Source: Natronospirales bacterium
GTDB lineage: Bacteria > Pseudomonadota > Gammaproteobacteria > Natronospirales > REEB76
Length of the DNA stretch: 64,000 nt
Reading direction: 5' to 3'
Assembly: GCA_021792635.1 (NCBI GenBank)
Contig: JAJYUH010000013.1
Coordinates: 2,862 to 66,861, forward strand
The position numbers and the translations under genes are program-made. The notes beneath the pieces are model-generated. The model saw only the letters and a program-made list of their open reading frames with translations, was not told the DNA's origin and ran no database searches. Below, piece by piece: positions 59,247-64,000 of this stretch; the first letter of the stretch is position 1, and the number at the start of each line of letters is the position of its first letter.

Positions 59247-59314
59247 AGCGCCAGCACCCCTTCCAGCGTGCCGCGCAGGGTGCCCACATCTATTTTTAGG
59301 GCAAGTTGTTTCAA
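59247..59314 (-). pseudogene. Displaced extreme 5-prime fragment of an arnD-like gene (copy C)
   Basis: TTG AAA CAA CTT GCC CTA AAA ATA GAT GTG GGC ACC CTG CGC GGC ACG CTG GAA GGG GTG = LKQLALKIDVGTLRGTLEGV. It aligns codon-for-codon with the start of intact arnD, and similarity stops right after the shared 23-nt core. TTG overlaps the stop of the upstream GAF-membrane gene (TTGA). The remnant ORF stop abuts the antitoxin ATG (TGAATG). Confidence 0.65.
59259..59281. repeat. 23-nt core, copy C
   Basis: Identical 23-mer on the plus strand. Confidence 0.9.
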
Positions 59315-61050
59315 TTTTCTACCCAGCCGGTTTCAAGACTGAGCGCTTGCACGCGGGTCGATTCCGGATTGAGAACGCCGCGAGCCACGGCGCGTATAAA
59401 ATTCCGGTCCTCGCGTGCATTGATGGCAAACATCGCCGCACCCATCTGGCGTGCCACTTGCGTCAACAGCTTGCGCTCCTCGGCAGCGTAATGCTCCCCG
59501 GGCCGGTTGGCGCATACCAGCACGCCCTGCAAGCCACTCTGGGTCGTCATGGGAAACGCATAACCATCACTACCCAAGGCACTGTGCAGCTCCGACAAAT
59601 CAATCTCATTTTGCCCAGTGCGTGCCGCCGCGAAGGCGGCATCGTCAATTTTCACGCTCTCCGGGTAGGCAATCCCCCCCTCGCGGCATGCCGCAGTGTA
59701 TGTGTCACCCTTACGCAAGTATATGGCGACGCCGGGCATGCCCAGCCTCTCACGCAGGGTTTGCGTGGCCGCCGTCAATAGTTCCTCGATATGTTCATAG
59801 CCTTCACAGTGGCGTGCGAAGCGCCGCAGCGCCTTCTCCGCCAGGTACTTCTTCCTGAAGAACACTTGCTCCACGATCCTATCCAGATACAGCCGCACCC
59901 GGCTGAGCACGATGCCCAAGGCCAGCGGCACGATGACCTGAAGCAAGAGGCTCGCACTGGTGCCCAGCGCGGCGTGTTCCACCAAACTGTTGACGGCCGC
60001 GAGCATGCCCACCACGAGCGCGGTCATGCCGCCATACACCAGGGTGTGATCCAGGACCACCGAGATGTCCATCACGCGGTGGCGCAGTACCGCGTACAGG
60101 AAGCCGGCCATGGCGATCGGCAATATCAGGGTATTCGTGATTTGCGAGGCCAGAAACCCCAGTAACGGCGTGTTATTCAGGAAAATCGCGGTCACGAACA
60201 CCACGCTGCTCCACAGCATCCAACGCAGTCGCAGCCGCTGTGCTCCGTCCGCATGGCGATAGTTCGCGAACAGCAGGACGACCGGCACGAAGTAACTGGC
60301 CGTCAAGATAAACCCATACTGGGGCCGCAAGAATTCCGCCCAACCGTAAGCGACGAAGACGAGGACCCCGCCCAATTTCGCGACAGCCCCCGCACCGAGG
60401 AGGAGGAGAAAGCTCGCGCGCCAGAGTGTCCGGTTCCGATGGCTGAGCGCGGCGCCGACCATGGACTCGACCATCATGTAGAAGCCGACCCGCGCGAGCA
60501 GGTACAACACACCGACGCCCAATTGGACACTCAGCCCGAGACCGCCATCCAGTGGCAAGGAGCTAACCGCGATGCCGACCACCGAGGCGATCGCCCAGAG
60601 CGCCAGGCCCGCGGCGGCCCGGTCGCGGCCGCGCCACGCGGCGAGCAGCGCAATGCCGCCGAACGGTACGACGACGAAAAAAAACGCCCACTCCGACCAC
60701 CGCATGCCGGTGCCGGTGCTGGTATCGACATTCGTGACCGGCACCATGACGATTGCCCGCCCGCGACGGATCGCGAACTCGTAGGTGCGCCCGGCGGGAT
60801 CGAACTGAGTGAATCGGCTGATTGCTATGCGGGTTGCTTGCGGCGTCGCGGCGAGATCCACCCGATCGCCTGGCTCGAGGGCCTTCGGCAGCGGGATGCC
60901 GGGAATCGGCACGATCACCGCGGTATGGGAATTCACGACGTTGACTGAAAACGGCATTCCAGAGGGCTGGAATACCCTGACACTGGCGTACGTAACGGCC
61001 AGCACGACGGCGGCCGTGAGCAGTAGCAAAAGCCCGTAGCGACGATGCAT
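59311..61050 (-). CDS. Polytopic membrane protein with N-terminal extracytoplasmic domain and C-terminal GAF-like domain (paralogue 1 of 3)
   Basis: ORF 59311..61062. ATG 61050 (GGAG 6 nt upstream) gives MHRRYGLLLLL..., matching the paralogue 2 start MQRRYTLLVLI. TM1, ~100-aa loop (PFSVNVVNSHTAVIV...EPGDRVDLAA...), about 9 more TMs, conserved LRHRVMDIS. C-terminal ~170 aa has a GAF-like pattern (...GVAIYLRKGDTY...GYAFPMTTQSGLQGVLVCANRPGEHYAAEERKLLTQVARQMGAAM). Confidence 0.75.
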   Translation of the reverse strand: MHRRYGLLLLLTAAVVLAVTYASVRVFQPSGMPFSVNVVNSHTAVIVPIPGIPLPKALEPGDRVDLAATPQATRIAISRFTQFDPAGRTYEFAIRRGRAIVMVPVTNVDTSTGTGMRWSEWAFFFVVVPFGGIALLAAWRGRDRAAAGLALWAIASVVGIAVSSLPLDGGLGLSVQLGVGVLYLLARVGFYMMVESMVGAALSHRNRTLWRASFLLLLGAGAVAKLGGVLVFVAYGWAEFLRPQYGFILTASYFVPVVLLFANYRHADGAQRLRLRWMLWSSVVFVTAIFLNNTPLLGFLASQITNTLILPIAMAGFLYAVLRHRVMDISVVLDHTLVYGGMTALVVGMLAAVNSLVEHAALGTSASLLLQVIVPLALGIVLSRVRLYLDRIVEQVFFRKKYLAEKALRRFARHCEGYEHIEELLTAATQTLRERLGMPGVAIYLRKGDTYTAACREGGIAYPESVKIDDAAFAAARTGQNEIDLSELHSALGSDGYAFPMTTQSGLQGVLVCANRPGEHYAAEERKLLTQVARQMGAAMFAINAREDRNFIRAVARGVLNPESTRVQALSLETGWVEN

Positions 61051-61168
61051 GGCCATCTCCAATTATCGTTATATCGAAGCGTGCGCAATGCACACACAGT
61101 TTCTAATTCAATCGGCATGCGGCATTCCTTACACCAAACCGGAAAGCTCGCTACCTGTCACCGACCCA

Positions 61169-62938: not shown

Positions 62939-63054
62939 GAAATTCTCCCGTTATCCCCAAGCGTGCGTAAAGAGCATATGTTAATCTGCTGGCAGTAATA
63001 TGCGCAGATTTCGCGCTTCCCGGTAATGCATATTGTGACCGTACCGCGGGTACC

Positions 63055-64000
63055 TCAGCCCGACGAAGCTTGGCTCACCAGTTCGTGCGCTTTGGCCCGA
63101 AGCTCGGGTGAGGCAGGGAATTCACCGCTCGCCAGGGCATCCACGAGTTTCGCTTTGGCTTGCATGCGCAGAGCATGCAGTGCTACGCCCATCTGATGCG
63201 CGACGTAGGTCAGGAGTTTGCGCTCATCGGCGGCGTAGTGCTCACCCGGCCGGTTGGCGCATACCAGCACCCCCTGCAATTCATCGAACGCGGTCATGGG
63301 GAACACATATCCGTCGGTTCCAAGCGCGCTCGTCAGTTCTGACAGGTCAATGTCCTTCTGATCAGCACGCACCGCCACAAAAGCGACATCATCTATTTCC
63401 ATTTGTTCTGGATAAGCCACTTCGCCTTCCTGGCGAACACGGGCATAGCCCTCACCCTTGCGTTCGTAGATTACGATACCTCGTGCGCCCAAGTGCCTGC
63501 GGATCTCCGTGGTAGCCTCCTCAAACAGACGACCGGTCCGCTCATATCGGGTGCAGTGCCGTGCAAAGCGCCGCAGCGTCTTCTCCGCCAAATACTTTCT
63601 CCGGAAGAACACCTGCTCCACCATCCGATCCAGGTACGTCCGTACCCGGCTGAGCACGATGCCCAGGGAAAGCGGCACGATAACCTGCAAGAGCAGGCTG
63701 GCATTGGTACCGAGCGCCGCACGTTCGACAAGACTGTTGACGGCCGCGAGCACGCCGACTACGACGGCCGTCATGCCGCCGTATACTATTGTGTGATCAA
63801 TGACCACCGAAACATCCACCACCCGGTGACGCAGCAGGGCATACAGGAAGCCGCTCAAGGAGAGCACCAGCGCGGCGTTGGTCACAATGGAAGAAACCTG
63901 GGGTCCGAGTACGGCCGTATTGTTCAAAAAAATGTTGACTACAAATATCACGCTGCTCCACAGCATCCAGCGCAGCCGCAGCCGCCTTACGCTGTCCGCG
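63055..64000 (-). CDS. Polytopic membrane protein with C-terminal GAF-like domain (paralogue 3 of 3), 5-prime end beyond the window
   Basis: The reading frame is open from the stop at 63055 to the window end (the track reports only 63055..63966 from an internal Met). By eye about two-thirds identical to paralogue 1 over the visible 315 codons (LRHRVVDVS, ...GYVFPMTAFDELQGVLVCANRPGEHYAADERKLLTYVAHQMGVAL). Confidence 0.75.
   Translation of the reverse strand, partial: ADSVRRLRLRWMLWSSVIFVVNIFLNNTAVLGPQVSSIVTNAALVLSLSGFLYALLRHRVVDVSVVIDHTIVYGGMTAVVVGVLAAVNSLVERAALGTNASLLLQVIVPLSLGIVLSRVRTYLDRMVEQVFFRRKYLAEKTLRRFARHCTRYERTGRLFEEATTEIRRHLGARGIVIYERKGEGYARVRQEGEVAYPEQMEIDDVAFVAVRADQKDIDLSELTSALGTDGYVFPMTAFDELQGVLVCANRPGEHYAADERKLLTYVAHQMGVALHALRMQAKAKLVDALASGEFPASPELRAKAHELVSQASSG

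Follow-up and report, generated by a model that had tools for sequence, protein, structure and literature searches.

Tandem PDZ-like, seven-helix, GAF membrane proteins lacking an output domain, beside arnD in a Metallibacterium-like gammaproteobacterium

At the right-hand end of the 64,000-nucleotide (nt) stretch of Natronospirales bacterium DNA analysed here (GenBank assembly GCA_021792635.1, contig JAJYUH010000013.1, positions 2,862 to 66,861; the whole stretch is referred to as the window), three consecutive minus-strand genes encode paralogous membrane proteins and abut a remnant of arnD, a gene of the arn operon for modification of lipid A with 4-amino-4-deoxy-L-arabinose (L-Ara4N). We number them paralogues 1 to 3 from the arnD side (Table 1). 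The original prediction, made from the sequence alone, had described three genes in the same direction, the third cut by the window end, and the list of open reading frames (ORFs) and the coordinates agree with it. Paralogue 3 is 63% identical to paralogue 1 over the shared part and paralogue 2 is 43% identical to it, much as had been judged by eye (about two-thirds, with paralogue 2 more distant), and the motifs quoted at the time (LRHRVxDxS, VEQVFFRKKYLAEK and GxLVC..RPGE.Y) are all present in the proteins. Residues of paralogue 1 are given in the numbering of the ORF of 583 amino acids (aa) that opens with a TTG; an ATG at 61050 with GGAGA a short way upstream, which would give a product of 579 aa, is the likelier start judging by this sequence context. 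Ribosome-binding sites lie upstream of the starts of paralogues 1 and 2, and the gaps of 106 and 116 nt between the three genes hold no terminator-like site, while terminator-like matches inside the genes are as frequent as in shuffled sequence.

Hydropathy and the positive-inside distribution of charges give a topology in which the N-terminus is cytoplasmic, a first transmembrane helix (TM1) at residues 10-28 is followed by an outer domain of about 95 residues, nine further helices end near residue 386 and the C-terminus is cytoplasmic. This agrees with an AlphaFold2 model of paralogue 1, built on 42 family members (mean predicted local distance difference test score, pLDDT, 80), which comprises a beta-rich region at residues 33-115, helices over 120-326, a low-confidence hairpin at about 333-401, a linker helix, a GAF domain at 425-545 (block pLDDT about 75-89) and two C-terminal helices. 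The bundle carries two conserved basic cytoplasmic loops, WRGRDR and RLRLRW. In Pfam at E ≤ 1, GAF (PF01590) is the sole domain in all three proteins, with scores of 31.6, 24.6 and 30.6 bits in paralogues 1, 2 and 3 against a gathering cut-off of 22.4, and Foldseek matches it to the GAF domains of PtsP, Nlh2, fRMsr and phytochrome with a probability of 1.0 and target-normalised TM-scores of 0.6-0.74; the full-length model retrieves GAF domains only. The NKFDE (N-K-x-D-E) motif of cyclic-nucleotide-binding GAF domains is absent on reading the window sequences. The anatomy originally proposed (a signal anchor, about 100 aa of outer domain, nine further TM helices, a helical linker and a GAF-like C-terminus) is borne out.

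Beyond the GAF domain the model contains only about 40 aa of helix, and Pfam, NCBIfam and the PADLOC anti-phage defence models all fail to find an output domain, whether catalytic (histidine kinase, GGDEF/EAL/HD-GYP/PP2C) or DNA-binding, as had been claimed. The only NCBIfam match in the window paralogues is irrelevant (E 0.54, 10.5 bits), PADLOC gives none at E ≤ 1, and the three proteins lack a Guanylate_cyc domain. The Pfam models 7TMR-DISM, DISMED, HisKA_7TM, 5TMR_LYT and MASE are likewise unmatched at E ≤ 1, and a sequence search of the PDB with the full-length protein returned nothing. An immunity or defence function, which we considered for the arrays and their toxin-antitoxin neighbours, was set aside because of the missing PADLOC match and the conserved sensor-type plan.

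A profile of 36 N-terminal domains searched against PDB sequences matched the PDZ domain of a DegP-like protease (E 2.2e-6) and that of RseP (1.1e-3), as well as the PDZ domains of DegP, DegS, AlgW, GspC and Ctp; nearly all of its top 25 matches are bacterial periplasmic PDZ domains. Given these matches and the PDZ_6 domains that Pfam finds in distant members of the family (below), the outer domain is, at the level of sequence profiles, PDZ-like. For the membrane part, a Foldseek search with the model of residues 1-412 returned only generic seven-helix (7TM) bundles, rhodopsins and G-protein-coupled receptors (E ≥ 0.008, TM-score 0.3-0.5), with the Deg8 PDZ domain at rank 38. This likeness is too weak for a fold assignment and we made none; since these are the only matches, the membrane part has no solved homologue, and no Pfam or NCBIfam model covers it. 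An RseP-like site-2 protease was rejected because none of the three window proteins contains an HExxH motif; Peptidase_M50 is also without a Pfam match.

More than 500 close homologues are present in public data, which rules out chance ORFs. Their named sources are Metallibacterium or uncultured Gammaproteobacteria, and in public records they are called nothing more specific than "GAF domain-containing protein" or "hypothetical protein". An exact-protein look-up, by which the contig might have been extended beyond 64000, gave no record of the window protein. The original prediction had not recognised a described family here; the family is uncharacterised, multigene and located in the inner membrane, and is restricted to a narrow group of Metallibacterium-like Gammaproteobacteria, most of them uncultured. 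A profile of the PDZ and TM regions, run against 1.84 billion cluster representatives, gave 6208 matches at E ≤ 1e-3, of which 718 reach E ≤ 1e-10 and 120 reach E ≤ 1e-30; the full-length ones are mostly of 550-610 aa. Among 63 distant members, Pfam finds GAF in 31, PDZ_6 in three (best E 1.1e-6) and a class III cyclase (Guanylate_cyc) in one, with no other output domain and no 7TMR-DISM, HisKA_7TM, 5TMR-LYT or MASE at E ≤ 1e-3. The cyclase belongs to P0252 (P numbers denote metagenomic family members), a protein of 869 aa in which the PDZ-TM-GAF body is followed by Guanylate_cyc and TPR. Searching with the PDZ and TM regions of P0252 yielded 16 proteins, almost all of about 580-635 aa, and a profile of the distant TM domains yielded six unannotated hypothetical proteins of 352-455 aa; neither search added an output domain. 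Another member, P0240 (1060 aa), consists of two complete units joined head to tail, and may have arisen by frame-fusion of adjacent paralogues.

We scored residues as conserved when present in at least 80% of 89 sequences, each 20-49% identical to paralogue 1. Those in the PDZ domain are G65, D66 and R78; those on the cytoplasmic face of the membrane are W143, G145, R146, R276, R278, R280, W281, Y323, L326, R327, R329 and R339; and those in the GAF domain include D473, D474, R481, S494, G500, P504, G513 and E529. The same alignment has no conserved polar residue in the TM cores.

The setting of the array is clearest in relatives. We surveyed GTDB species representatives and fetched contigs for arn-flanking arrays, which, with the window, came to 11 assemblies; in the ten related Metallibacterium-like assemblies the arrays number up to five copies. 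In locus L005 (GCA_049591455.1; L numbers denote comparison loci) arnT (PMT/Arnt_C), an EamA/SMR-like arnE/F gene, arnB (DegT), arnC (glycosyltransferase family 2) and the formyltransferase and dehydrogenase halves of arnA are followed by five paralogues and arnD (Polysacc_deac_1). The small EamA/SMR-like gene (L005 5490-5861, 123 aa) is the only one there; E. coli has two such genes, arnE and arnF. L007, whose genome is one of the two closest to the window, has the same arn order with two paralogues, then arnD and icd. Both ends of the array are seen in these two loci, where it lies between the arnA dehydrogenase half and arnD; the dehydrogenase half stands immediately upstream of the array in four (L005, L007, L024, L039), and the start of arnD lies 4 nt before the stop of the last paralogue in eight (L004, L005, L006, L007, L019, L025, L034, L053). 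The ArnD proteins of the assemblies that share this order and overlap are only 80-88% identical. Taken with the window, where arnD is likewise followed by icd, the gene order of the relatives indicates that the ancestral locus is arnA-[array]-arnD-icd. Co-transcription of the arn-embedded copies with the arn genes is presumed, and translational coupling of the last paralogue to arnD is likely.

The window retains this junction in rearranged form. Three copies of the arnD 5' end are present (repeat families D4 and D5), 80-89% identical over 61-129 nt: as a remnant whose start overlaps the end of paralogue 1, as a second remnant, and as the start of the intact gene, whose product is 81% identical to the ArnD of L005. 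The suggestion that the last paralogue had once overlapped the start of arnD is upheld by the 4-nt overlap with the first remnant and by the intact arnD at that spot in relatives. A toxin-antitoxin pair (58641..59164) lies between the two remnants, just after paralogue 1, and a MacAB/DevCBA-like exporter cassette between the second remnant and the intact gene; since both have recombined in, the ancestral junction is kept in the window as a remnant only. The toxin is taken to be ParE-like because a pair of the same size in L069 carries the annotation Unstab_antitox and ParE_toxin. The cassette is 97.9% identical to L004 4385-8707, where it sits in mid-array and precedes three small ORFs, a further two paralogues and arnD; those two paralogues and three small ORFs are missing from the window. 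The three arnD 5' copies mark the cassette boundaries and look like sites of homologous recombination, and the window looks like an L004-like array that would have lost two paralogues through recombination between the arnD 5' repeats.

Table 1. Paralogues, their predicted domains and the rearranged arnD junction in the window (positions of the whole stretch)
Feature	Coordinates	Strand	Basis or remarks
Paralogue 1, arnD-proximal "type A" copy	59311..61062	minus	ORF from TTG 61062, 583 aa
Paralogue 1, PDZ-like periplasmic domain, residues 33-115	60718..60966	minus	family profile; strand/helix pattern in the model
Paralogue 1, seven-helix bundle TM2-TM8, residues 120-326	60085..60705	minus	AlphaFold2 block, pLDDT ~74-94
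Paralogue 1, LRHRVMDIS loop and TM9-TM10 hairpin, residues 327-401	59860..60084	minus	low pLDDT
Paralogue 1, helical linker (VEQVFFRKKYLAEK...) and cytoplasmic GAF domain, residues 402-545	59428..59859	minus	Pfam 31.6 bits; Foldseek
Paralogue 2, "type B", 589 aa	61169..62938	minus	ATG 62938 behind GGGAGA
Paralogue 3, "type A", C-terminal 314 aa only	63055..>64000	minus	cut off by the window end
arnD 5' remnant 1	59245..59314	minus	TTG-KQLALKIDVGTLRGTLEGV; TTG start overlaps paralogue 1 stop by 4 nt (TTGA); repeat family D5
Antitoxin, TIGR02574-type, 75 aa	58937-59164	minus	NCBIfam match
Toxin ORF, 97 aa	58641-58934	minus	no NCBIfam match
arnD 5' remnant 2	58486..58662	minus	…LALKVDVDTLRGTLEGVPPLVDVLQKHSVQTTFLFSL…, beyond which arnD likeness ends; families D4/D5
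MacAB/DevCBA-like exporter cassette	53973..58310	minus	between remnant 2 and intact arnD
Periplasmic adaptor of cassette	57063-58310	minus	
ATP-binding cassette (ABC) ATPase of cassette	56295-57011	minus	
FtsX-type permeases of cassette, two	55141-56298 and 53973-55217	minus	
Third arnD 5' copy, start of the intact gene	53682-53819	minus	
Intact arnD-like deformylase	52896..53819	minus	NF011923 E 1.4e-74, full length, below equivalog cut-off; Polysacc_deac_1

Comparison of the window with the related loci further reveals that the paralogues are mosaics. Among type A paralogues the TM9-10 hairpin and the linker are 61-96% identical, and the PDZ domain and TM2-6 only about 35-50%; the LRHRVMDIS loop with TM9-TM10 is their most conserved segment and also a recombination breakpoint. 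At the DNA level paralogue 2 matches its L004 and L007 orthologues with 96-100% identity. Paralogue 1 is 77-91% identical to the same two loci from 61057 to about 60000, that is, from the start codon through TM8, and beyond that point identity returns to 98-100% in L004; in L007 there is a second breakpoint near 59860, in the VEQVFFRKKY linker, after which the GAF region is only about 70% identical. The divergent N-terminal module of paralogue 1 (60004-61060) is instead 86-90% identical to the N-terminal modules of the arrays beside topoisomerase genes in L069, L068 and L009, where the copies that share it carry foreign C-terminal modules. Because matching N-terminal modules are joined to unlike C-terminal ones in different loci, these alignments indicate that paralogues swap modules between loci, with junctions at their two most conserved motifs.

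Tandem amplification is real and was understated by the threefold copy number first proposed, as single metagenome-assembled genomes (MAGs) hold members at several loci and arrays reach five copies. JBOIBD01 has four loci, one of them an array of four, and DAHVFI01 also has four. Clustering of neighbouring genes over 62 distinct loci gave no recurrent partner except the arn genes; the other clusters, such as a Sortilin/BNR protein, a conserved 313-aa ORF and DUF2306, reflect synteny within sets of related genomes. In two metagenomic contigs, L070 (7119-7853) and L072 (4997-5650), a gene for a DUF2306 membrane protein immediately precedes distant members, which may be synteny rather than linkage. 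One non-arn site does recur, beside a gyrB/parE-type topoisomerase gene in L068 (an assembly of cultured Metallibacterium scheffleri) and L069, the array there ending in a TacA/TacT module (3794-4578 in L068). The Unstab_antitox and ParE_toxin pair of L069 (11893-12410) lies inside the array and its gene sizes are those of the window pair; toxin-antitoxin modules may stabilise such recombination-prone arrays.

With the architecture, the missing output domain, family membership, the position in the arn operon and the mosaicism established, we hypothesize that the proteins are orphan envelope sensors that would signal by protein contacts, and that the arn-embedded copies are tied to the aminoarabinose pathway, a reading drawn from sequence and structure models to which we assign a probability of roughly 45%. 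A cue from the periplasm or membrane would be read by the PDZ/7TM half and relayed by the conserved hairpin and linker, probably in dimers, and the GAF domain would transmit it not by catalysis but through the binding of a partner protein or small ligand; the lack of an output domain is what points to protein contacts or GAF ligand binding. That the TM9-10 hairpin is highly conserved and yet modelled with low confidence could be explained by a dimer interface, on which we can only speculate. Paralogues would differ in input specificity as a result of exchanges of N- and C-terminal modules among them. Those embedded in arn would be produced along with the L-Ara4N lipid A modification enzymes, and it is plausible that they tune this pathway or report the same envelope stress (acid, metals, cationic peptides). 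We favour a sensor because the proteins follow the 7TM-receptor plan with an outer ligand-binding domain, because the variable half faces the periplasm or membrane while the conserved half is a relay and a cytoplasmic domain, because it is the cytoplasmic face and the GAF domain, not the TM cores, that hold conserved residues, and because the sole natural fusion puts a cyclase after the GAF domain. The description of these proteins as sensors without a transmitter in the original prediction therefore remains the most plausible one, backed by the PDZ-like domain, the weak 7TM likeness and the cyclase fusion, though it is something we infer.

Several observations weigh against this hypothesis. 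Pfam PDZ models find no match at E ≤ 1 in the window proteins themselves, the 7TM likeness to receptors is weak, TM9-10 is modelled with low confidence, and the cyclase fusion is a single metagenomic protein. Most of the 62 loci have no arn genes within the available sequence, so that an arn-specific role applies at most to the embedded copies; for the same reason we rate an arn-specific biochemical role as of low probability.

Three other explanations must be weighed against the sensor hypothesis. That the window paralogues are decaying duplicates, whether pseudogenes or assembly artefacts, might be suspected from the two arnD 5' fragments at the locus and the signs of deletions relative to L004; however, the ORFs run uninterrupted for about 580 codons and have ribosome-binding sites, the fold is modelled confidently, and the motifs are conserved in the homologues (718 cluster representatives at E ≤ 1e-10 with the TM-only profile), and this conservation effectively refutes an idea that we consider very improbable. 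It is unlikely, too, that the membrane domain is an effector that binds, flips or channels undecaprenyl-phosphate-Ara4FN/Ara4N to ArnD and ArnT, with the GAF domain as a regulatory switch and the PDZ domain for docking. Such a role would dispense with the missing output domain and would suit the placing of the array between arnA and arnD with its 4-nt overlap onto arnD, the single small EamA/SMR-like gene in the L005 operon, and the eight conserved arginines clustered on the cytoplasmic membrane face, which could bind a phosphate headgroup. Yet the TM helices contain no conserved polar or charged residues, the best structural matches are weak 7TM bundles and include no transporter or GT-C enzyme, the N-terminal half is the most variable, which is unusual in a substrate-handling core, and the cyclase fusion points to a sensor. 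Most members are, moreover, far from arn genes, among them all the distant ones examined (P0271, P0273 and P0280).

The most serious competitor, in our view a minority possibility with perhaps one chance in a handful or slightly better, is that the proteins are generic orphan sensors or regulators whose arn site is incidental, the junction between paralogue end and arnD start being a recombination hot spot that gathers cassettes. The insertion of the toxin-antitoxin pair and the ABC cassette at one junction, each leaving an arnD 5' remnant, speaks for it, as do the same-sized toxin-antitoxin pair within another array beside a gyrB/parE-type gene, the movement of modules between the arn array and the topoisomerase-side array, and the many copies in unrelated neighbourhoods. 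An incidental site sits less well with the recurrence of the arnA-[array]-arnD order and the 4-nt overlap despite the divergence of ArnD noted above, with the near-identity of the type B copy in three genomes, which indicates purifying selection in place, and with the lack of terminator-like sites between the genes. A more specific form of the sensor hypothesis, which we put forward as distinctly improbable, is that the paralogues form a new class of output-less PDZ-7TM-GAF receptors working directly on the Arn machinery in the membrane, which would dock or gate ArnD, ArnC, ArnT or undecaprenyl-phosphate-Ara4N, exerting a post-translational control of lipid A aminoarabinosylation driven by envelope signals in which module-swapped homo- or heterodimers of types A and B would set the inputs.

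Resistance to polymyxin and cationic peptides arises mainly through the modification of lipid A with L-Ara4N, which is considered to be under transcriptional control by PmrAB and PhoPQ. A conserved sensor-like array inside the arn operon that overlaps arnD would suggest an unrecognised control layer or accessory step, in acidophiles of metal-rich, low-pH water; if the arn site is incidental, this is merely another uncharacterised, narrowly distributed sensor family. The family also defines a membrane domain that lacks a Pfam model and a solved homologue, and offers a clear natural case in which sensor modules (PDZ-7TM, hairpin, GAF) have been shuffled among paralogues, with the joins at conserved positions.

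Elsewhere in the window, positions 2562-10055 have a G+C content of 0.51-0.55 against about 0.60 and encode a two-partner-secretion transporter of the ShlB/FhaC type, a PP2C phosphatase and a Ser/Thr kinase of 1444 aa with a C-terminal FGE-sulfatase-like domain. A copper-type P1B ATPase with YHS and two HMBD metal-binding domains (39858-42467) and, downstream of the paralogue locus, a PutA-type proline dehydrogenase (44696-47887) fit a metal-rich habitat and are unrelated to the paralogue finding.

Among the nearest known systems, the 7TMR-DISM and HisKA_7TM sensors share with the family the order of signal anchor, outer domain, seven-helix bundle and cytoplasmic signalling domain; the window family differs in its PDZ-like outer domain, in two extra TM helices after the bundle and in having no kinase, GGDEF, cyclase or phosphatase. 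The LRHRVxD motif after the bundle recalls a RYRLxD-type motif that, we presume, follows HisKA_7TM bundles. DegS, DegP and RseP have PDZ domains that match the outer domain at the profile level and face the periplasm as it does, whereas the family is without a protease domain or HExxH and fuses its PDZ domain, for which peptide binding is only putative, to a 9-TM body and a GAF domain. Some GAF proteins lack an output and work by way of a partner or ligand, such as NreA with NreB and the c-di-GMP receptor PelD. There, as here, GAF is the last recognisable module, so that any signalling would have to proceed by binding rather than catalysis. Unlike the window proteins, NreA is a soluble protein and PelD combines four TM helices with a degenerate GGDEF domain; Pfam and Foldseek reveal no relationship to either beyond the GAF fold. 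In the arn (pmrHFIJKLM) operon, homologues of ArnT, ArnE/F, ArnB, ArnC, a split ArnA and ArnD flank the arrays of the relatives, and the window keeps arnD and its two 5' remnants; the paralogues resemble no Arn protein, and we know of no such gene between arnA and arnD in the E. coli arnBCADTEF operon. The literature searched (PDZ and GAF membrane sensors, arnD with GAF, Metallibacterium lipopolysaccharide) held nothing relevant, and neither an output-less PDZ-7TM-2TM-GAF architecture nor a variable array between arnA and arnD was found in it. The domain parts of these proteins are known; the membrane module, as noted, lacks both a curated model and a solved homologue.

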